A DNA stretch of 64,000 nt from Phoronis australis (lineage: Eukaryota > Animalia > Phoronida). The first letter of the stretch is position 1. Every line of letters starts with the position of its first letter. Shown in pieces: positions 2,156-22,100 of the stretch. Made by a program: the position numbers and the translations under genes. A model generated the notes under the pieces. That model was not told where the DNA came from, did not search any database, and saw only the letters and a list, made by a program, of their open reading frames with translations. Where the stretch lies: NCBI GenBank assembly GCA_002633005.1, contig NMRA01000274.1, positions 101,817-165,816 on the forward strand, written 5' to 3'.

Positions 2156-5100
2156 CTGTGGAACAAGAACAACCGGGGGGTTAGTGGAAGGGACGGCTTC
2201 TGTCGGAGCTTCGTGGGGGAAGTGCATCGCTGTGTGTTGGGGGATATTCAAATCTACGAGGGTAAACAGAGGTCAAATTGCTGCACGGGGGGTCATGCGG
2301 GTGCAATTACTCCAGTAAAATAATCTTCAGTACTGGTGACCGTTACCAAATGCATTTCCAACTAAGAAGCCTTCATAAAACAACTGCTTTTGTCCATACA
2401 AGGCAAAGTCCCCAGTCTTAAAGGCCACCACACAGATAATGAAGAGTCGAGCAAAAACTGATTGACAAGGCAGACAACACATCGGAACATTTCCCAGCAT
2501 CAGCCCAAATAATTACCAACCATTTTGACACTCTAGCCCAACGAATAAATATTTCACTCCTGTGGTTAGGGTGATTTGACACAACCTATTCCCTATTTTC
2601 TTACGCCGGTCCACATTTTGAGAATAGGGGCAACTTGACAGAGGCTGCAAGTTGGCCACGTCACACATTACAACTAACAGTGTTTACATGGCGTATAATC
2701 TAACAGCAGTTCACACGACAGAAATTATCTCCTGTTTTGACTGAATACCAGTCGAGAACACAGCCAACAAGCGAACATAATGAGTGTGAGAAGGTTATTA
2801 CACTTTTCGGTCGACTAGCTTGGGGCCACTTATTACGGGAATGGCATTTTCGTGATGCCCGGGCATACAACTGGCAGAGCTAAATACACGTGCGGTCCTG
2901 GCAACACATTAGCCATCACATCAATTTACAAATCCCAACACCCTCTGCCAAATACCACACATAACAGTCACCTTTTGTTTGTCAACATATTGCTTACATT
3001 TGAATAAGTTAAGGTTTTGATGCCCATTTCCCGTGAAACTAGGTCAAGATAAATTAAAGCTCAACAGAGAATGGAACGTTTTTATCCAAATATACGCCCT
3101 GGGCATGAGGGAAATTCCTGCCCGTATTTGCCATTCGTAGGATAATTAAAACGCCGTGTGATCATTCCTCGCAAATCTCCAATCAGCCATCTAAAATAAA
3201 TTGTGTCCACCCAAATTGTGTTTTCATTTTCCAGGACTTTTACAGTCTACAAATCTCAATTTCCAAGAGTTATTTTTCCATGAAAAAGTAAACAATTTTA
3301 ATTTTTGCTGATGATTAATGCCAAGCCTAATCGAATGAATTAATTATCTATTTGAACCACAAAATGGGAGCTTCCTGAAATTTTCCTCCATTTTTTTGTC
3401 AAAATCGACCTTCTTTCAGTTTTCAAAACCCTTCCAACATTGTTGTGAATACCAACAACTTTATCTCAAAACCAGCTTCACTTCTCCACCACATTGCATC
3501 ATCAATTACGAGATTTCACCGTACTTGCACACAATTCGCCACTGCGCTTGAAAACGATGTGTCGTGTTCAAACTACAACGGTTCTGCACGTCTGGCAGGT
3601 TCTGCACGTCTGGCACACGCGTGCCTTAACGTTTGCATTGTCAAAATCGATGCTAAAACGAGCCTTTGTCCTAAACAATAATGCACAGCAATAGTTTTCT
3701 GCAGCGCTACCAAAGTGAGCAAGAAGTGAATTAGCGAAATGCGACAACATTCCACAATAAGCAGCCAAGAACCAGCCCAACTCGCCAGTCACTAACCTGG
3801 CGAACAACCCCCCCCCCCATCCTCTCCACTGCTGGGTTAGTATTAAGCACAAGCCAGAGGAATCAAGGGTGGTAGAAAGGGTACGAACCTTACCTGCCAG
3901 CGCCTGATGCGCTAGCTCCTCATGACTCAGTGCCCGGCCCCCGGGAAGCTCTTCGCTTTTTTCTTCCTCGCGCCGCTTCAGGCACGCTGCCTTGGGGTTG
4001 AGGTTACGTTCTGCAATGACAACCGTGAACGCGTGATCGTTGAGCAGTGGCCAACTCGCCAAAACGAGTACGTGTGGAAAACGCAAAATCGTGACGTGAA
4101 AATATATACGACAGGTCAATTCAGATATTATTTAGTCATCTACAATTGAGAAAGAAACAACCACAGTGGTTGAACTAGGTTGATGAACTACAAGTGAAAC
4201 TGAATTCAAGGGCAACACTTGCGTAACCAAGAGTGGAACAGTGGGAAATACTTGTAGTTGTCTCCCCTTAACAACAAATGAGTCAGAAGGGGTGCATATA
4301 ACCACGACAATGCGTACGGAAACGCACGCACACACACAAGTCACAAGAGAGAGAGATGGCTCTCACCTCGGATTTGCTCCTCTAAACTCGTGATAACATT
4401 GACGGCCTGCTGCAAAATGGTTAATTTTGTCTGTGGTTTGTCATTACGTAAGTGGAGACTACACATGCGACCCAACTCCTTAAATGCCTCGTTTATATCC
4501 CGGACACGTATCCTGTACGAAACAGAACAACAGAAAAACAAGATCAACAACTGATGTCAACAACCGCCCCAATGGGAGGCGGTGGCAGCAGCAGTGCCGT
4601 CTAGTGGCCCACCCAATGTACCACGATTCCCCAATGCACACGACCACCGAAATAACAAAGTCAGCTGTTCGATCGATACACACCCAACATTGCAAAAATG
4701 TTGTCACAAACCAAAACTGAATATTCAGTTATTACGGTACACTTTTTGCGTCGATCGCGACAACCAAAAATGCTCGGAAACTGGGTCGCGCAGGTGGGGT
4801 GGACGTGTCATCATCGGGTGGCGCCCCCTGTTATCACGTGACCAGTTCATTTACCTCGCACTTGCTGCTCTAGTGACGTGATAAGAGTGACTGCCTGCTG
4901 CAAGACCATTAGCTTGGTGAGTGGTTGGGTATTACTTGTGTGAAGTGTCACCATGTGGCCCAACTCTTTGAACGCTTCGTTGATGTCGCGAACGCGCACT
5001 CTACAGAGACAAAGCACACGCCATCGTTACACACGGGAATCCAGCACTTGGCCAGCAGGGGAGACAATAGCTGGATCTCATTTACAACATACGTGGATTA

Positions 5101-8100
5101 AAGTGAAACAATTGCCTACATTGATTAACAAATAATACAGGGTAAAATAAAATTACACAAGACACCGTAAACAAAATCTCAATACTTTATTTTTACAATC
5201 GATGCCAAGAGCCCTCACCAGTAGAATCGAATATTTTCTAAACCTTAAAGATTCAAACTTTAGAAAACAACTGTAGCACTACAGAAAAAATAGCCAGTGC
5301 TTAACATAACAGGAAGCATTGAAATCCTCTCCTTTGACCTACCTTTCCCTTGCATTGTTGGCCTGACGACGAACTTTTTCCCTTTCCTGCTTTACTTCAG
5401 CAGGCTCATCGGGATCTTCCTGGTCACTTCTGAAAAAGACCAGCGTAAACGTAATGATACAGCGAAACAACGTTCCAAGAGGCACAACACACGTAGCTAG
5501 AGCATCCATGTTCGTGGTGAATGCAATAATTAAACTACCGAAATGAACCAATCTGTGAAGTCTCATCCGACAAAATATAAACAGTTGATGAGGAACAAAA
5601 GCAAAGAAATCTGATGAAGATTTACACTATGTAATCCAGATGTCAAGGTGAAGGTTGCCAGAAAAGGCATGTGTGAACTCACTGTCACAGGATGGACAGT
5701 AATGGTGCACACAACAGGTTTAACACTTGTGGACAGTAATGGTGCACACAACAGGTTTAACACTTGTGGTCGGCTCATGCACAGCAGTTGATGAGACAAT
5801 AACGACACACTTATATCGGAGAATAACCACAAGACCATTGTGACCTCGTGATTGGTTATTGAGCTTCAGTTCAAGCAAGGGGCACTTTGTGATTGGTTAG
5901 TGAACATAAGAGCATGCAAAAGCAATCTTGTGATTGGCCATCGAATGCTAATTTCACTTTGTACCTGATGGAATATTTGGCATAGTCCATTTGAATGTTC
6001 ACAATGTTTATGTAATCCATGTTTCTCAGAGAATCATAAAAAAACAAAACCACACTGTTCTTTCTGAATGAAATACATGCAAGCTGCAGTTGCCTCTACT
6101 GGTGATCCGAAATTTGACAGATGGTTCATCCCAACTGGAAAAGTGGTCGGTTAGTTGAGTCAAGACTAAGCCAAAACTCATCTATATGCAGATGCTGTTC
6201 CAGAAAGCACAGATGTTTACTGCTGTGCTGTCTAGTTGCACACTTGGATGGCCAAACTGTCCAGACACATTATTGCAACAAGATCCAGCTGCGCATGGCA
6301 CAAACATATGGTGTTGCTGGCCAACTAGGCTTCGGGGACAGCCATGCCATTGGAAATTAATTATCAAGCTATCTGTGAGTGTGTACTAAAGTTACACCCA
6401 ACCTTGGTCACCAGGGGTCGCTGGTTTTAGGTTTGGATTCAACTGGTGACCTACTACCAGTACCCAACAGAACGGATTGGTAAGCAAGCAAGGTAAACAA
6501 AAGCATGAAGACACAGGATGACCAGCTTCTTACAAGATGCAACTTCCAAGCCAGACAAGAGAATCACTGGACATTAAAGAGACATTATCCTTTTTGCGGG
6601 CGAAAAATACCATTTTGGAATTTTAGTTGAATGATATAGACTTCTCAGTTATTTGCTTTGACCGGAGCTAAAAAATAACAGAATCCGTCCATTGTTTGTG
6701 TGGTTTTATTAAAAATGGTCTATTCTTGCTGATGTCCTCCAGACATTTGCTGAAATTACTGCAGGCATCTTCATCTACTTGAATACGCTTAAAAATACTC
6801 TATTCCCCACAAGGATTTGTCTAGGCGGCAGAGCGCTTGGCTGCTACTGCGAAATTAGTGGGTTCGATTCCGTGCTACTGCCAACTTTCGTAACATTACT
6901 TTTCTCCCCGATATAATGTCCCTTCCTCAACCGCTGCAATCCAGTGACTTGAACTATCAATACAGAAAACAAGAAAAAACAACGGGACAAACTTCCGTCT
7001 CTCTGTCATGTCACACGAGCCATCCTGAAGGCTACGCTGATAGGGTGCACTGCTTGCACTCAGCAATCATAACGGATTTATGCGTCGCTTTGTCCTATTA
7101 TTTTCAGCATGTAGTGTAGCTGACTAGACAGAAGACTAAGAGGCATCTCTCAAAGCCAAGCGTTAAGGCAATGCTGCAGTTCACTTTGCCAACATACATT
7201 TGACAGGGGACATTTAGCAACTTCGGTTGCACTGACCCAGCGGATGGGGCTTTCACCAACATCAATACGGACAAATGCTATTTACTCTGGCGCACAACCA
7301 CAACCAATGAAAACACCCCTTCCGCCCCATCCCTTGACCAATAGCAACCACTTTTGCCAATGTCTACTTACTGAGCAGGTTCTGATGTACTCTGGCGTAC
7401 ATACCGACTACGTTTATTGGGTGGTGCTGAAGACGTTGAATCCCGCCTTTCGGCAGGACTAGTTACTGGTTGTGATGACAGGCTTGCCTCTGAACGCGAG
7501 TCGTCCATGGCCGACTGCTTATCCATTTTTTCTATTTTAATAGAGCCATCTGTTGTTTGCTCCACAGGATCGGATTTCATGCCTGAAAAAAAAAGAGTTA
7601 AATTTCACGCATTTCTTGCAAAATAACATTAATATCAGACGATAAGACCACAGTTGGTTGCGAAACAGTGCCTATTACATCGATCTCGGAATGAATACTA
7701 ATTTAACTCGCATTTACAGTTATAACTGTTAGAACTGTAGCTGCCACAAACACATCAACACTCAAACAAAACTGTAACTCTTTCTCAAGAAAACCATAAT
7801 TTGAAAGCTGGGAACAGCTGCGAAACGTTTCTACCGAATTTTCACTTCACAGCACCCAACGAAGCAGGCGAAATTACTGAATTTACCCCTCCAATCTCCA
7901 CTACAGTGTATAGCACTCAGCTACAACTGACTGTGTCGCTGTGGCAACAGATCAGTGCATCATATGGCTCCAGTTGACTCTGCACTGGACCTGATAATTC
8001 AAAGTGGGTCAAGTTCATGTGATATTCATCTACTTGTCCACAACTAGGTTAACAAGGCCCAGTGCAGAGCAGCCAAACACCATCAGTTACCAACAGGGCT

Positions 8101-11100
8101 CGCTGGCAGGTAAATATTTAGGCTTGGGTTGGGTCGATTTACCACTCCCCACCTATGATCGGCTGGCCTTTAACACAGAACACCAATATATACATCCAAC
8201 AAAACGTACCATAAGTGTCTGTCTGTTCTCGCACTGGTCTACTCCTGTCGCTGTATGCGGGATGAGTGCCCTGCTGGAACACACCAAAGAAAAACATCAA
8301 ATCCAACAATGGATGTATCAAATTCTATAAAACTGTTGCACAGCACACACAAACAACTCTACACCAACTCCGCCACTCCTGGACTAAACAGACCGGCTAA
8401 CAACACACCAGTTTATATTCCATGCCAGACCACCGAAAGTTGATTGCTAACTCATGGCTGGAAGCACACAGCCTGACAAGTTTGGGGGACATTTGGCCCT
8501 CTGTTCTGTGTCCATTAATTCCACTTGTCATAAACATTTCTGTATAGCAACCACTGCCAAAAGCGCACATTCTGGCTCACAGAGCTGGTTTTATAAACAA
8601 AGAGCACAGCTTGTTTAGTGGTAAGTCATACAGGTTTAGATTACAGAATCAGTTAAGAAGCTCATATTCACAAGATGAAACTTACATAACCTTACGTTAC
8701 ATTAGCAGAGTATATTTTCAGTTAAAGTTACTCTCATCTCCTGTATACCTTCACAACACAAAACCTGAAACTGAAACTAATGAGGCAGCTTCCTGTAATA
8801 AGATTCTTACACCCAGTATCAACTATGTGAAAGTACCTTTGCCAGTATGCAGGCAATAACTGGGGAAAGACATAGTGTACAAAATCACCTACTCAAGTGA
8901 CCTATGAACAACCTGCCCAGCTTGTAATATGACAGGCATCACCCAGGGTAGTAATCCTTGTGTTGAAAGTTATCACGGATAGAACGAACCAGTTACATTA
9001 TCGAAGACAATAATTAAACAGCGCGTGGTAAAGATGGAAACTTTACAAACCGACTGACCCCATTCTAGTCCATCGAAAACTACAAAAAAATCTTAATTAT
9101 CCTGCAGACAGGGCCAGTGATGAAGATTTAATAGAGTGACCAGGGCAACTAGGAGCTCTGGTGAAGCAATGCTGGCTGTCAGGCAAAGCCAGTTACACGC
9201 CATTAAATGTAAAGTATAGACACTAACAAGATGGAAAGTAAACTCAGCCAGCTGAGAAAGAAATCCAGCACCATGTGTTAGACCAGTTGCTGCACAGCAG
9301 GCCAGATGTGTACCTTGACTAACGTCAGTGGAGCTGACTGGAGGAAGCCAAAACATCTTCAGCAGCAGGCTATGTCACCAACGTTTACAGAACAACACAC
9401 CCACACAGATCACTGCATGTGAATCACTATCCTCTCATCAAAGCTACAAACACTGCTGCAAGATGAGGATATCTTTTCACTACTACAGAAATCAACTGGC
9501 TCACCCAGTACTATGATTGAGCACTCTAAGTCGGTTGCTATGAACAACCTAACCAAGGTATTTAACACCGATACATGCGCCTACCCAGAGGTATGAGTTG
9601 AAAGTCGACACCGGTGGTGGCGCACCGGCAGCCTGGGAGAACTCCGGAGACTCCCACACCCACTGAGCGCACCACATGGCTGGTTGCACACCGTCGATTT
9701 CCGTTCCACTCCAGTGAACCCGTTCAGGCAGGTACCACAGTGATATTAACAGCTGCTTTCTAGACTGGCCAGTCCACCTCTGACCACTCAACTTGTCAAG
9801 GAAGCGCAGTGCTCTCGGACTGAACAGATGCTCAAGACGTGTGTGTCTGTGAGCGCGCCCGTGTGCCAAATCCAGCCAACACAGGTTGGTGACCAAGTGT
9901 AATTGGGATTGCCAGAAGACAGGCACACTAATTGAAACAAGCTGCAGTGAGCCAGAATAAGAGCAGGCGCAGAATCAAGACACATCACACATCAAATGCC
10001 AGTCAAAATTACAACAGATTAAACGCACATTGGCCAGTCAGGCCTACTCTGCACATGTGGAACCAATTTGAATGAAATCCGCTTGAAATACGCTCATAAA
10101 AAATAACTCTCATTCTACAGCCACTGAAAAGTCTACGGGGACTATGAGCAGGGTAATAGGACAGCATTCGGATGCATATTGTAGCACAAAGTGTGAGGGA
10201 CAACATCCTGACAAACAGTACAGTGGACAAGTGATAGTCATCATGCACTAACCCAGCTGACACATGTGGGAGTCACTACACAGTCAGGCAAGGCCAGGGA
10301 GCATTTGTTAATCATCGCCATCAGTACTGACTGTTAGCAATAAACACACTCCATAGGGGAAAATATCCATCAAATTAATTAGTATAATTGTGCACCACAG
10401 TAATCAGTGCGGTATGCCCCACCAAGCAGTTGGGATTCTTTATGGAGAGGCTCTTACTAGCTGAACACAACCAGATGGCAAGGCTGGATTTAGATCATGT
10501 AAGTGTGCAGGTATTTGTTTACTTATTTTTGAAGGGACACTAGTTTCTCTGTGGTGGCCTGTATCTGCAGCGGATCAACATCTACCGCGGTGTTGGACTC
10601 AAAGTTCCCAAGACTAGCACAGAGCATCAAATAAGATAAAGTTAACTAAAGACACTGGTCACTCTTATCAAACAGCCTTAGCGAAATACAATATTACTGT
10701 CTGGAGACCAATGTCCGATTCCCAAAAAATACAAGTACCAAGCACACCGCGTGCAGAACACATACACAGCATTCAATCGCGCAATAGATATGTTAACAGA
10801 AGAACAGCTAATCGATTTAAAACAATTGGGGCACTCTGTACTACAGCATTCTACACGACACGGCACAACCAAGCCACTCGCGTTCACCAAACACTGACGC
10901 ATGCATAGGGGCCCCGTACACTGGATAAGTGGTGGCCAGGGCTTAATTCAAATTGACCAACATCGGTGGCAGCAATGTCCCCCAGCTGGGAGTGGTTAGC
11001 GAGGTGTTTGCCTGTTGAACCTTCAATCATCACTTAACCAACTGCACCTGTGTGTACCTGGCGACTACTGCCGATGAACCGAGTGAACCCTGTCACCGTA

Positions 11101-14100
11101 GTGACGTTGTTGGAGCCAGTAACTATGGCGATATCAGTAACAGAGTTGTTTCCTAAGAATGTGTCCTTTAAAGGTATGTTCACCAAAACTGTTCGTAAAA
11201 ATAGACACCCAGGTTTTGCAGTTACTTAGTTAGTCAACTGAATTAAACAAGCCTCCCTTCACAGCATAATTCAATCAACTATCCAACTAAAATGCAACAG
11301 TATGTTAATTAAATGCCATAATTGATGAGGAAGAATAACCGAATAAATCATGACAGACAGATAGAAATGCACAGCACCACTCTCTCAGCAAACACAGCTA
11401 GTGATCATGTCAAAACCTCAACAGCAATAGGACAACAAAGGCATCAAAAGATCATCAACCACTATCACACAGCGCCACCTACCTGTATGTGTGAGTCTAG
11501 ATGGCCAGGCAGGCCCATGGCTGGATAGCTGGAGGGGATGGAATGTCCGGGGTGCACTAGACCGGCCATGCCGGGGTGCGGCGGGAAGCCAGGCAGTTGA
11601 CCCTCGGCGTGGTTGCGCAGGACGTGGATGGCGTCGTCCAGCCTCTCTTCCATTCGACTTTGCTATAACAGAAGAGATGGCAGTGATCAACAAGGCAACA
11701 ATGGATTCATACTTCATAGGTTTACATTCAACTTGCAACCTCATAAGAATCATGATCAAAGTAAGAATGTGGTTGTGGAATTCACCTGCCACCCTCAGGC
11801 ATAGAGTTCGGTGCGGTTGTTCAAAAGTCCGCATCAGGCTCCAGGATCTAATCTTTGTACTCGAAATCACACCCAAAATTACTTTTTGCATTTTCTGTTC
11901 TACTTTTGTGCAAACTTCATATAAGCGTCTATTATTCCGTATCTGAGTAAATTATGGTTTATGCGGGCAAGTTTCTAGTCCAAGTTTGCACTTAATGACC
12001 CCTGCATTAAAGCGACAAGTTAGAATGTGGACTCCAAAAAATCGAGAGTTTTTGCTCGAGATTGTAGTTCAAATTTAAAGCCCATCAAGAGCAAACTTAG
12101 AATAAATCAATTATCATAATTTACACAAACACAAAATAATAAACACTTAGTTTCAGTTTGTGCACAAACAGAATGGAAAAAGTAAAAAATAACTTTGAAT
12201 TTGATTTCGATTAAAAAGATTAGATCTCATGACCCCCCTCCCAGACCACTGTTTTATGAAACGCCTGAAGATCAGTACTGTAGTCAGGACCCAACACACT
12301 TTGAAATGAGGTTCAAATCGGTAAGTGCGGACAGTAACTCAAAATGTGAAGCCACTAGAACAAAAATGTGAAAGACATTTTCAATTTGTTGGTTCGCCAT
12401 TACATCTATTGAGAATTCATTGAAATAACATACCACAGTAACTGTTGCATGGGAGATTTCTTAACATAAACAGTTATTCACAGTTCATCAGCAGAAGTGA
12501 CTAGATTACTAGACTACCACAACACCGACTAGGGGAACTAGGGCACTAGGGGCTAGGTCCTATGCTAGACGGAAAGCACAAAGCTACGAAAGAAAGGTTT
12601 GCCAATAAAAGTTTTTTCCTGTTCGACACCTTTAAAGTAAGAGTCCAGTTTTGTGCGGCATTTCAACACACAACAAGGACTAGGAAGAAACAATTTCTTA
12701 TAGATCATGTGGCTGTCTTAGCCATTTTGTGAACTAAAAAAGCAAGAGAGCAACTTTCCATGACCAATGTATAATGGTATCGAACAGAAATAGGGGGCGT
12801 CTCTCAAGACCAGAGAGAGGTAGAGAGATCAACGGATCTTTGGACTGCTCGTGTTCGAGGCCAACACGACTAGTAGTATCTGCAAGGAAAATCTGCATGT
12901 AACACGACACGAAGATATGACGAGAAGCATGCATACAAGATGGCCGCCACCACAAGCACAAGCCCGTCCACCGAGTAGCCGCGTTACCTCCACTTGGTCA
13001 CGTAACCCGTGGATGGCGTCGTCTAGACGTTCCTCCACGCGGGATTGCTGAAAAAGTCGAGCACGAGGGTCTGGAGACGAGTGCAACCGCGCCAATACAT
13101 GTGACCTGCACAGAGCCTGTGGTACCTGTGACCTGCACACCCTATGATACCTGTGACCAGCACAGACCCTGTGGTACATGCTCCCTTAAGCCACTAGAGC
13201 TAAGTCAGGAAGAGAAACAGTCAACCACATGAACTACATATCTCTATCCATCTATCTATCCAACATGCATCCGAAAACAACGTGAAGACATTTTCAAATC
13301 AATCTAACGCGAGACGAATCGATCGAGATGAAATTTCAAATCCAATTTGCGCCCAATTAGCGCCAGGTGGCCACCAATCTTTGGCACCCGGTCCCCTTGT
13401 TTACCCAGTGTGTTTCTCATTGATGAGCACGCCCACTTACCAGACAATGTAGATGACTTTCAAAAGGTGGCGAGGTAGTGCTCTGTGTTGTAGGCCAACG
13501 ACCCGTGGGGGGACCTGCAATCAGATGGAACAACCTTGTAACAAAATCCTCCACCAGTAGTAAGCAGCACAAAATGAAGACCTAATTCACTTAGTTAAGT
13601 GAACTCTGGAGCACGACAAAAGTGCAGTTCGCATGCAGTCTTCCAACAATTATTTTACGAGAATTTCAACTATTGGTAGGGAATGCTGAATTGTATTTTT
13701 CTGCTTAAGTCCATTTTCCCCAAACCAAGCCACATCAAATCACTGACAACTGATAAAAACCATTGATGAGAGGGGGTTTCCTCTCATCCAAAAAAGTCCC
13801 CACTCAGACAGCACTGGTGAACAAGAGGCCAGGCAATTTAACAAGACTGGATCCCCACTGCTGCATATGTCAGCGATTTGTTCACAGTACAGTACAAATG
13901 AAACTCAGGTCAAACTATCGAAACCCGGTTTGTAAGTAAAATTTAAGAGCGAAATGTAGATTATACAAATAGGCCCTCTCGACTGGCTGTTCATTGACAA
14001 TTGGCAAGGCTGCTTACAACAGCTAGGACCAAGAAAGCGGGCGAGCCGCAGTTTACCTGTGATTGACTGTGGCGATGAGACTGGCGTAGAACTGTTTGAG

Positions 14101-15391
14101 CTGTAACTGGTGGCAGTGTGGTCTGTTGAATAGATCTGAAAACAACGAGTGAGAAAGAGACACGGTAAGGTCATGGTACTGTGGACAGTATTTTGATAAA
14201 TGACACCAAAGTTCCTCCTCAGCAGTGAGCCATGAGGTGGTTTTGAGCAACACTGACAGCAGTTTGTTATGATGACACTGATAATATACTCTTGCGTTAC
14301 TCAGCAGAATTTTAGCGGACCAAAATGGAAATGAGTCTAACTTTTTGTGCTAAAGGTGTTTCCCACTTAAATCATTTCCCTTGTATTTTTTGTATTTTTA
14401 GCACTTGGGTGAGCTAAATAAATAAGGTAAAAACACAAAAGAAAAATGGTTCACTAGACCACACAAATATACAGATTATCCTGGAGGCGTTTCAAAACTG
14501 GGAACTTAGTAACTGTGTAAAATCTATTGCGTTTACTAAATAACAGGGTTTGACCGGGTCTCGAGATATGGGGGAGTTTCAGCTGTGGCACAAATCTTGC
14601 TGACTGCGGTTATGCTAAACCTATATAGCACCAATAAAGATGAGTGAAAATTTATTCCAATTTCTCAAAAAATGAAGATTAAGGAAAATCTTGATTCTAT
14701 TATTAGCGTGATTTGTACTGTGTAGATGTAACCAAAGAATACTTTTCAAAGTTCCCATTATTTACAGCAAGGTAAAAAATAGAAAATTGACAATTTTGAC
14801 TATTACTTTGGTGCGAAATAAGAAATGACCTATCGCCAGGATATTGAGTGACAGCTTAATTGACCAATCAGAACCCAGCATTCTTGACACACATTAGTTT
14901 CCAAACTGCCATTTTACCCGACAAACAACACATTGTCGGGTAAAACTCATTGTTTGGTGACTTTTTACAAGGAGGCGGAGCTTGCAATAGGTCAATTACT
15001 GCATGACCAGACAGGCATCTCCACAGACGCCCAAGCACATGGCTCCACAGATCAGAATAACATCAAGTCACACTCAACAGTGCAACTGTATTACAGAAGT
15101 ACTTAGTCTCAAAACGGTGCCAGTGAAACAGAGGGTTCACCCGAGTGTGCATACTCACAGAGGCGAGCGCCTTTCCCAGGGCGTCCGAGCTGCCCTGTGA
15201 CCTCGGCACCAGGTCGGGCCCGTTGGCAGCGGTGGCTGGCGACGAGGTGGCCGCCGTCCGACTGTGGGCATGGAAGGTGGAGAGGGGCGGGAGACCCGAG
15301 CTCAGCTCTGTTGTGTGGTAGCCACCCTGCCACGAGTGAAGCAAAGGCATTTATAAGGGGATCACTGACCTTGAAAGGGCATCAGTTATCA

Positions 15392-18400: not shown

Positions 18401-19087
18401 CATTGGCTTGGCATGGGAGAATTTGGCTAAAATATTTAGAGGCCATGTGCAGTTTACCAGAACTATTTACAAACTTGGCTTAGGTGCTGGCAATCCAGAC
18501 AACTGCTTGTTTAAATTAACATTCGCAGAAAATTCAATAAAATAAATATAAGTTTCTGTGCATTTACGTTTACGTGCCCACAAAGCAAAGAGAGAGAGAA
18601 AGAGAGAGAGAGAGAATCCTAAAGCCGATATCGGGCAACAACCTCCCCACGCTAATCTTCAACACCCAAATCCATGCCAAAACTTGTAATGACGTGAAAT
18701 CAACGTTCTCTTACCTGTGCCGAATATGTAGGAAGGAGAGGTGAATCGGGGCGAGTCGTGTGTGTACTCATCGGGGCTCCCAGAATATACCTGAAACAAA
18801 GTGCAAGGATGTTTAACCAGCCAACGGTATATCGCGTTCATTTCTCGCACCACAGTAAATCAACTGCCGCTTAACCGTAGAGCCAAGGACAAATCGGACA
18901 GACTCTTAAATCATGGTGGCCCATAAAAACGACTGCGCATCATTTGATCATTCAGTAATCAAGGAAATAACTGAATTTGATGTTAGCCGATATGACAAGC
19001 ACAAAGCTTTTAAATAAATTGCGAAAAACCAACACGAGGAAGTAAACNATAAGTTTCTGTGCATTTACGTTTACGTGCCCACAAAGC

Positions 19088-19126
<39 letters not shown>

Positions 19127-22100
19127 ATCCTAAAGCCGATATCGGGCAACAACCTCCCCACGCTAATCTTCAACACCCAAATCCATGCCAAAACTTGCAA
19201 TGACGTGAAATCAACGTTCTCTTACCTGTGCCGAATATGTAGGAAGGAGAGGTGAATCGGGGCGAGTCATGTGTGTACTCATCGGGGCTCCCAGAATATA
19301 CCTGAAACAAAGTGCAAGGATGTTTAACCAGCCAACGGTATATCGCGTTCATTTCTCGCACCACAGTAAATCAACTGCCGCTTAACCGTAGAGCCAAGGA
19401 CAAATCGGACAGACTCTTAAATCATGGTGGCCCATAAAAACGACTGCGCATCATTTGATCATTCAGTAATCAAGGAAATAACTGAATTTGATGTTAGCCG
19501 ATATGACAAGCACAAAGCTTTTAAATAAATTGCGAAAAACCAACACGAGGAAGTAAACCATCCCAGTCACTCGCACAAAAGGCTTCATTGGTTACTATGA
19601 CAACGCTCAAATCAAACGTGAACCAATTTTTATTTAATCAACAGAGTGACTGGCTCTCTGGAAAATCACAATGCCCAAAGCGAACGATTTCCAACAAATG
19701 GTAGTGGTGAAATGGAGAAGAATGTGGAGTGAAAATTCTCTCCGTTTCGATAAGTGCCCATGCATGCTTTGTCACAATTATCTTTTCGAGGACAGAATGA
19801 AAGCAAACAATGGACAGCAAGGTCATTGCATAACTAACTAGCCATAGGATTAAAATTATTCAACATGGGACTGAAATAATTGCTAAAATAGCCACTTTTC
19901 TCATTCAGTAGATGGCTACCACACAAACCACGGTTAGAAAGAAGAAGGCAGAAGAACTTGCTCAAGAGTTATTTCTGTTGAGAAATCTCACTCGTCTGCC
20001 GTACTGTGTTTGCAAACTGCGGAATTTTTTTACAATTCTGCATCAATAACGTGTAAATCTGATACTTTGAAAAGTAATTCTGGAAATAATCTGAAAGGAA
20101 AGGCGCCAAACTATATAGTGTGTTAAGATAAAGAACTGATCTAAATTTGACAAACGCAACAGAATCAAAGCACAATGCATACGTTTACCGGGCAAAGCTC
20201 AAACTACAACAAGGAAATACTGGAGCCCAACGGTTCAAAATCTTAGGATGGCTATGTCCGGAGAGCCTAGAACTAGAAACCAGAGAAAAATAATTTAATT
20301 AGCTTTATTTCCTTCTTTTTTCAGGAAATTAATTTATCAAAAACATTTTGGCCCTAAAAGCTTTTAAGCAAATACTTCCATCCCCTTTTCAGCAATGTGA
20401 GCAAATTTAATTGATAAAAACTGACTGTTCACACAGCTCATTTGCAGATTGCCTGAAGCCCGTATATGAAATATAATTATTGAAAAGAGGAACACAAGTC
20501 TTGTCCTGAATTGACCGAACGAGGATTTTTTCAAGTTTTAGATGAGTCCAAAGGACACCTTAAAATTCATTCAGTTATCTTGGCACGCGGACGACACAGT
20601 GTATATAATTGAAAAAAAAAACTATCCTTTCGAAAATACAAGGTTTCCTACAGAAAATATTACAGAAGCCCAGGCGCTAGTCACCCGTCTCACAAGATGG
20701 ATTGAGTAAAGAAAGGCCAGACCAACACTGACACATTTTTTGTTTCGTTTTTTTTTATAATAATTTACGTAATTGATTGGTAAACGGACAAGGTTGGGCA
20801 AATTTAGGACAATTTGCAGCCCTGAACAGGTACAAACTCTCCCTAGTGTGGGGACTTGAATCAAATCCAGAACTGTAATAACTTAGCCCCAGCATAAGAA
20901 CTTGCAGACACGAATGCACCAGAAAACATAGAATCGTATTCACTGGTACTTATGACAGACGCTCACAGAATTTGCAACCAAATCTCAATGATGAGCAACT
21001 GTGTCCTGAGTAACTCTAAAACATGCTAGAGCCTGATGACAATTTAATGTCATTTTCCTTATTCACACAGGAAATGGTGAGCCTGGCAAACAAGATTACC
21101 CAACCCCCTCACATAGGAATCTCTTGTTACCAGATCACCAAGGAGAACTATTCAGTCCTCCAGCCACTGGTTCGGGCAAACTCTAGGATCTCGGTGGAAT
21201 AAACTCTCAATTCAAGCGATAAGTCACATAAGCCCATAAAATTCTGCTAAACAAAAATCTTGACAAAAATGTATTAGAATTGTAATTGTCACACCAATAG
21301 CACAAAAAAGTTTCCTTTTTGCAGTCCTGAAAACGCCACTAAGAAATAATTTTCATATTAAATGCCAAGAGAAAAACATGTATCATTACAACACCTGATC
21401 AAAGTTTTCTTATAAAAAATATCTTCTACGACGTATTAGTTCAGGTTTTACACCTCAAGGAATGAACAATTTATTGCCGCCCTACTGAGATTTACCAGCA
21501 GACAATTGTTTAAATATATAATTTGAATTATATAGTACATTCTCAGAAAGGGCGAGGAGCAGAAGGAATGCTACAGGCCCATTCACCTGGTAATCAAGCT
21601 GATAATAATTATGTCATGACAGTCACAAAGCACAATCACCCATGGGGAAAACTTTGAGAGGGGGTCTTTGTCAGTTCTTGGTCTTCACCAGAACTGCTGT
21701 GACAGATCAGGTCAGCTGGCTTAGGCAATAACTGAAGGCCAGGGAAATATGTGAACAGACCTGTACAAGAATGTTGATTGGCGTTTGGAGGGACAGCAGA
21801 GAAACCAACACAAGGGATAAGACAACACTTGGCCTTCCTCAGTTCAGACTGCAGAACAGCGATATACCAAGAATACACCACACTGTGTGTTATCAGTGAT
21901 CTATCAAGGATGAAGACATGTTTAGTTCTGTCCAAAAATACATCAAATTTCGAACCCCTTGAACTTTAATAATCATGGTTATCACGGACAGCAGTTTGCT
22001 ACAATTGAAAGGATATTTTTACTAAATTGTAATTCGCCCAATATTTGAAATATGTTTCATCGGTAATCAGTTTCTCAGGCCCAAACATATCACGGTAAAG

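Follow-up and report, generated by a model that had tools for sequence, protein, structure and literature searches.

A duplicated activation-domain helix in a phoronid E-protein gene and its likely counterpart in the 'ankyrin-like' exon of TCF12

The AD2 helix of human E2A recruits co-activators. Leu397, Ala400, Ile401 and Leu404 are the E2A positions that matter for KIX binding, and a neighbouring second motif in E2A brings no gain in KIX affinity (PMC4066744). A second described element of the family is exon 15 of TCF12/HEB (72 nt; HEB-beta, REB), an optional, in-frame exon that lies in tandem directly before the AD2 exon, and that is labelled ankyrin-like in PMC3346973, PMC12699894, PMC13231128 and PMC5852603 and only named in PMC12034182. 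Its inclusion is reported to be preferred in neuronal lineages, with PTBP1 as a repressor (PMC12699894), to be repressed by QKI as well (PMC13231128) and to rise in myogenesis (PMC5852603). Links have been drawn between the exon and T-ALL, myogenesis and the neuronal versus mesenchymal states of glioma; after 30 years under the name 'ankyrin-like' it still lacks a mechanism in recent cancer papers. The E12/E47 bHLH exons of TCF3, an example of substitutions derived from tandem exon duplication (PMC9741552, PMC5852603), are, like the exon reported here, an old duplicated and alternatively spliced exon in a transcription factor. Within titles and abstract openings, the scope of our literature search, we found no paper tying TCF12 exon 15 to AD2 or to invertebrate exons; the main texts of PMC9741552 and the ASPRING preprint do not mention TCF12, although their supplementary tables could list the exon.

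The window analysed here, a stretch of 64,000 nt of Phoronis australis DNA, carries a class I bHLH (E-protein) gene on its minus strand. The exons span positions 19301 down to 2155 and, joined according to three raw-read runs, give a single frame through the bHLH (Table 1). A C-terminal class I bHLH with an AD2 motif upstream places the product in the E-protein class (TCF3/4/12, daughterless), and in a protein search the closest proteins to the AD2 exon were E proteins of a chiton and an abalone. These hits, and a bHLH exon pair that agrees in type and order with that of the annelid Lamellibrachia, point to a lophotrochozoan gene and away from an invertebrate chordate.

Table 1. Features of the E-protein gene in the window (reads are given as X1/X2/X3).
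Feature	Position	Strand	Details
Cassette exon, second AD2 helix copy	12988..13047	-	60 nt, AG/GT bounded, phase 0-0, RNA joints
AD2 exon	11483..11662	-	180 nt, phase 0-0; predicted KIX-binding helix in first 20 codons
Upstream exon	13441..13514	-	Donor joins cassette or AD2 exon directly
Downstream exon	8210..8273	-	Joined to AD2 exon (11483>8273, 6/14/21 reads)
Basic region exon	5343-5429	-	Marks gene as class I bHLH E protein
bHLH exon in use	4855-5000	-	Marks gene as class I bHLH E protein
TGCATG element	12928..12933	-	55 nt 3' of cassette donor

Splicing was assessed from about a fifth of each of three runs of raw reads carrying the source species label (X1, X2 and X3; tissue of origin unspecified), from which 15 of 18 RNA joints were listed, the remaining three being weaker. 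Reads joining the upstream exon to the cassette (13441>13047) numbered 4, 0 and 2 in X1, X2 and X3, respectively, and reads skipping it (13441>11662) numbered 8, 2 and 16, which puts inclusion at 6/32 upstream joints (95% interval 7-36%, on small read counts; 4/12, 0/2 and 2/18 by sample). All four X1 reads that leave the cassette at 12988 enter the start of the AD2 exon at 11662 (agreement 0.99). The cassette is a minor, in-frame optional exon, spliced in tandem before the AD2 exon. A preliminary description of this DNA had proposed that the cassette could be included, skipped or used instead of the AD2 exon without a frameshift: tandem inclusion and skipping both occur in RNA, whereas replacement, possible in frame, was not seen, since no 12988>8273 joint stands among the 15 listed and such a joint conflicts with the X1 read consensus. 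In this small sample (4/4 reads) the two copies therefore do not behave as mutually exclusive exons, in which one copy replaces the other, and the locus differs from the E12/E47 pair of TCF3 in that only the 5' part of an exon has been copied and that the copy is added rather than swapped. The hexamer TGCATG, which we take to be an RBFOX-type element, occurs within 150 nt of only one of the 12 donors checked, that of the cassette; with nine copies in 17 kb, one would fall near this donor with a chance of about 8%, and the element gives a weak hint that inclusion may be tissue-regulated. No QKI motif was found near the cassette.

Sequence comparison bears out the observation that the cassette duplicates the start of the AD2 exon in phase 0-0, with 15/20 residues and 41/60 bases identical over the first 20 codons. 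No third copy of the helix motif turned up in any of the window's six frames. Eight of the 15 identical residues are encoded by different synonymous codons (pS 0.84, pN 0.17), and codons 9-13, five in a row, are identical in DNA, which may reflect chance or local conversion. A young local duplicate that evolves neutrally and is included through splicing noise would be compatible with these five codons, with the low inclusion (none in X2), with the presence of intronic reads and with a tree that cannot reject a grouping of the cassette with its own AD2 (p 0.50), but it is hard to reconcile with synonymous sites near saturation beside so low a pN, with unrelated introns flanking the cassette and the AD2 exon, or with matching cassettes across phyla, and we regard it as very improbable. 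The cassette is an old copy under purifying selection, and an assembly echo is excluded. The exon in the window is real, spliced and old, and it casts a human exon already known in a useful new light.

By its residues, the copied helix is the predicted KIX-binding core of E-protein AD2. The AD2 exon matches residues 388-411 of mouse E2A (PDB 8ubk_P) with an E value of 0.067, and both window helices match E2A at the four key positions, where the cassette retains Leu, Ala, Ile and Leu and conforms to the AD2-1 motif hydrophobic-x-x-Ala-hydrophobic-x-x-Leu. The cassette has Gly at motif position +6, which may weaken its helix. E2A has a single copy of the helix against two in the window gene, and KIX binding has been measured solely for the E2A peptide (Kd 17 uM). 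We infer that the cassette would act as a second co-activator site.

A second helix directly before AD2 is widespread among annotated proteins, on which, rather than on genomes, all presence and absence calls given here are based. It was found in annelids (Lamellibrachia, Dimorphilus and, weakly, Owenia), in molluscs (oysters, the pearl oyster and the gastropods Pomacea, Haliotis and Bulinus), in chelicerates and myriapods (spiders, mites, a centipede and a millipede) and in crustaceans and hexapods (ostracods, a barnacle, a mantis shrimp, a springtail and many insects). Skipping forms accompany inclusion in the same species in Haliotis, Microplitis, Dimorphilus (2/5 full-length models) and Oratosquilla. 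Invertebrate isoforms annotated as 'TCF12', 'TCF4-like' or 'daughterless' (Lamellibrachia P0029, Pomacea P0050, Dimorphilus P0325, Stegodyphus P0469, Cotesia P0068) share with the window the same insert and the same end, often with 20 residues; they are automatic gene models for which we found no description, whereas the window cassette has RNA reads. The four KIX-relevant positions preserve their residue character in 37 of 40 distinct cassettes, defined as windows scoring above 3 bits on an AD2 profile and not amounting to independent lineages. Weaker inserts (Lineus, Tubulanus, Littorina, Babylonia, Nucella, Ruditapes, Octopus, Liolophura, Ptychodera and sea anemones) were left out of these counts and, Liolophura excepted, scored separately.

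In vertebrates, an insert at the same junction is carried by 5/7 hagfish and 9/10 lamprey isoforms, and a 24-residue insert is identical in 118 of the 119 TCF12 hits listed, from sharks to mammals, in a list that is biased by its ranking on likeness to a hagfish query. Two jawed-vertebrate paralogs bear an insert: TCF12, as exon 15, and a shark protein (P0495, Heptranchias perlo 'TCF12-like') that falls outside the starred TCF12 clade and has a more AD2-like insert. None of the TCF3- and TCF4-type representatives examined has one. Since the P0495 insert lies outside the TCF12 clade, the exon is likely to be older than the vertebrate genome duplications and to have been lost from the TCF3 and TCF4 types. 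P0495 also falls outside the starred TCF4-type and TCF3-type clades and may represent a fourth ohnolog of the E proteins that has survived; PMC8199221 takes this ohnolog as lost before the jawed vertebrates split.

No AD2-like insert was found in 7 amphioxus, 15 echinoderm and 4 priapulid annotated proteins, and no second AD2 helix in the corals listed. The hemichordate Ptychodera (P0131 and isoforms) has an optional 26-residue exon at the junction in 8 of the 15 isoforms listed, with a weak likeness to AD2 that is reached by 34/3000 shuffles; similarly decayed inserts stand at the junction in some gastropods and nemerteans. Sea anemone inserts (P0094 and P0061) show no AD2 match, their scores being reached by 615 and 2675 of 3000 shuffles. 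The Ptychodera and sea anemone inserts, of 22-26 residues, could be decayed cassettes or could mark a hot spot for new exons. Short insertions before the AD2 motif have also arisen separately, of 2 residues in some gastropods and 3 residues in vertebrates (P0103, P0073, P0127, P0130, P0148, vertebrate AD2).

The earlier statements that vertebrate TCF12 has an optional 24-residue exon at this same junction, and that this exon may be a diverged duplicate of the AD2 helix, were both supported: vertebrate isoforms carry the insert there, and the comparison of cassette, TCF12 insert and AD2 found profile similarity as well as a shared position. On a profile built from 51 invertebrate AD2 windows, the rat TCF12 insert (P0441, residues 398-421) scored 14.3 bits, against 5.5 bits for the best of 93,436 decoy windows from the family, and ranked second in its protein, behind AD2 alone. 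The score on the full profile was matched by 1/20,000 shuffles and that on a 10-column core by 22/3000. An HMM of protostome cassettes recovered the rat (per-protein E 5e-4), hagfish (3e-3) and P0495 (0.03) inserts, modest values, and missed the lamprey insert; an HMM built from invertebrate AD2 alone found P0495 at E 0.04, and with it the rat insert did not reach E 0.05. In a MAFFT alignment of 34 whole proteins selected for carrying the insert, rat Ala412 and Leu416 lie in invariant columns, and an annelid query spanning both helices aligned with TCF12 isoforms over 92-93% of its length. Exon 15 and the window cassette occupy the same junction, in frame, and are optional (window RNA; hagfish and lamprey isoform pairs); they also share the L-x-D-A-hydrophobic-x-x-L core, an acidic residue at +9 and an exon-final Glu. 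They differ in length (24 residues against 20) and in identity to AD2 (6/20 against 15/20 in the window copy). On this evidence from sequence the TCF12 exon 15 insert is very probably homologous to AD2.

An ankyrin repeat comprises about 33 residues, folded as a helix-turn-helix plus a hairpin. The inserts have 20-24 residues and one predicted helix: AlphaFold2 models the rat insert as one continuous helix (397-422), followed by a second helix (425-443), with pLDDT 83-86 in the cores of both helices and low confidence in the remainder. Against the label carried by papers since 1993, by which the vertebrate exon would be a true ankyrin-like motif sharing the junction by coincidence, Pfam listed no ankyrin family for 5 insert-bearing vertebrate proteins at E values up to 10 (HMMER filters drop weak hits), Foldseek with the low-confidence model returned nothing but bHLH proteins at E<0.01 and no ankyrin protein among the 16 matches shown, and the insert matches AD2 instead; a true ankyrin-like motif is in our view extremely improbable. 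Since optional exons that match it are found in vertebrates as well as in molluscs, annelids and arthropods, the 'ankyrin-like' exon of human TCF12 is likely to be this duplicated helix and not an ankyrin repeat.

The preliminary description had left open whether the cassettes share an ancient origin or arose by recurrent duplication, and an ancient single origin is now favoured, although unproven, as the trees reject neither. An acidic residue at motif position +9 is found in 32 of the 40 distinct cassettes, vertebrates included (hagfish have Gly), against 0/73 AD2 helices, in a count made without filtering on that position. The window cassette has a 3' end at +12 in common with the vertebrate exon and with the exons of many protostomes, and +12 is Glu in all vertebrate inserts but Val in vertebrate AD2. 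Once its 4-residue insertion is disregarded, the rat insert agrees with the window cassette at 9/20 residues and with its own AD2 at 6/20. Over the whole profile, simulated independent copies came as close to the protostome cassettes as the vertebrate inserts do with P 0.09-0.37, and with P 0.81 for P0495; an acidic +9 together with Glu at +12 appeared in about 0.5-0.7% of simulated copies, for sites that were picked after seeing the data. AU tests rejected neither one cassette clade (p 0.59 and 0.52) nor a vertebrate re-duplication (p 0.44 and 0.33). Relative to a free search, the log-likelihood of the all-cassette tree was higher by 2.2 in one set and lower by 0.4 in the other, and that of the re-duplication tree was lower by 2.1 and 5.7. 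A tree of 20 columns gave little resolution (5/47 branches starred).

These data also bear on two or more origins of the same helix, namely a protostome duplication and a separate duplication on the vertebrate stem, followed by convergence. Such a history would suit the gap in amphioxus, echinoderms and Priapulus, the extra residues that precede the motif in both the vertebrate insert and vertebrate AD2, and the simulation and AU values given above; in addition, the Glu-Gly codon pair that follows the helix needs a single base change to become an in-frame donor, which would favour the recurrence of the same 3' end with each duplication. It is opposed by the rarity of the joint +9 and +12 residues in simulated copies and by a re-duplication tree 4-5 log-likelihood units under the one-clade tree, while decay or loss is frequent even inside the molluscs and gastropod AD2 has an independent insertion at the same spot. 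We consider several origins rather unlikely, and a single bilaterian origin of the cassette probable from these comparisons.

What the extra helix does may be approached through the vertebrate exon. The sole biochemical report on the rat exon, Klein 1993 as cited in PMC13231128, describes weaker E-box binding and weaker dimerisation, and for this reason the main rival to a co-activator role is that the helix acts as a damper, packing on AD2 or the bHLH or competing for co-activator, with less DNA binding or an altered choice of partner as the outcome. PMC12699894, in which induced exon 15 inclusion lowered 253 genes and raised 70, points the same way, as does the vertebrate insert, which has moved away from the AD2 sequence but itself hardly varies, as a new binding surface would be expected to do. 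Protostome copies, that of the window included, nevertheless keep the AD2 motif almost unchanged, and the exon-containing isoform supports MyoD activity (PMC5852603). A damper is unlikely in our judgement; the two roles could coexist, and the vertebrate insert, being diverged, may have switched to a different partner.

The reading that we prefer, and hold to be fairly probable taken as a whole, is that the minor in-frame cassette adds a second AD2 helix, predicted to be a second KIX-type site for CBP/p300, and that it likely stems from one duplication in the bilaterian ancestor, with TCF12 exon 15 as its vertebrate survivor. The acceptor of the AD2 exon and its first 20 codons would have been copied upstream, and a new donor would have arisen in the copy, 12 residues past the motif's first Leu. 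Under regulated inclusion the protein would then carry two AD2 motifs in place of one, and these could hold two co-activator surfaces or rebind one, with recruitment raised or redirected, and the exon would have been lost or have decayed in TCF3, TCF4, amphioxus, echinoderms and several molluscs. A stronger version is possible but somewhat doubtful: a single duplication in the last common bilaterian ancestor, with TCF12 exon 15 as this same helix and inclusion as a conserved CBP/p300 valency switch in neural and muscle differentiation, kept for more than 550 million years. If true, this would be a very old case of alternative splicing setting the number of activation motifs in a universal partner of proneural and myogenic bHLH factors. 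The invertebrate copies present TCF12 exon 15 as a second version of a motif whose binding partner has been measured, and so make the question of its function directly testable.

Several further features of the locus were noted. The gene has tandem 146-nt bHLH exons resembling E12/E47, of which the one listed in Table 1 is spliced in 20/20/16 reads (X1/X2/X3) and the other, at 4367-4512 on the minus strand, has no joint among the 15 listed; Lamellibrachia P0029 has the same two exon types in the same order, and its annotation treats both as included. An alternative donor (7372-7405, minus strand) drops 33 nt right before the basic region exon and was used in 0/6/2 reads against 7/12/15. A direct repeat of about 510 nt (18548-19561, 97.5% identity), whose halves meet at a single N (19048), carries one exon twice (18715-18790 and 19226-19301), most likely as two haplotypes placed adjacently in the assembly. 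Intronic interspersed repeats lie at about 11845-12130 and 14826-14998, with both-strand reads and many loose ends.
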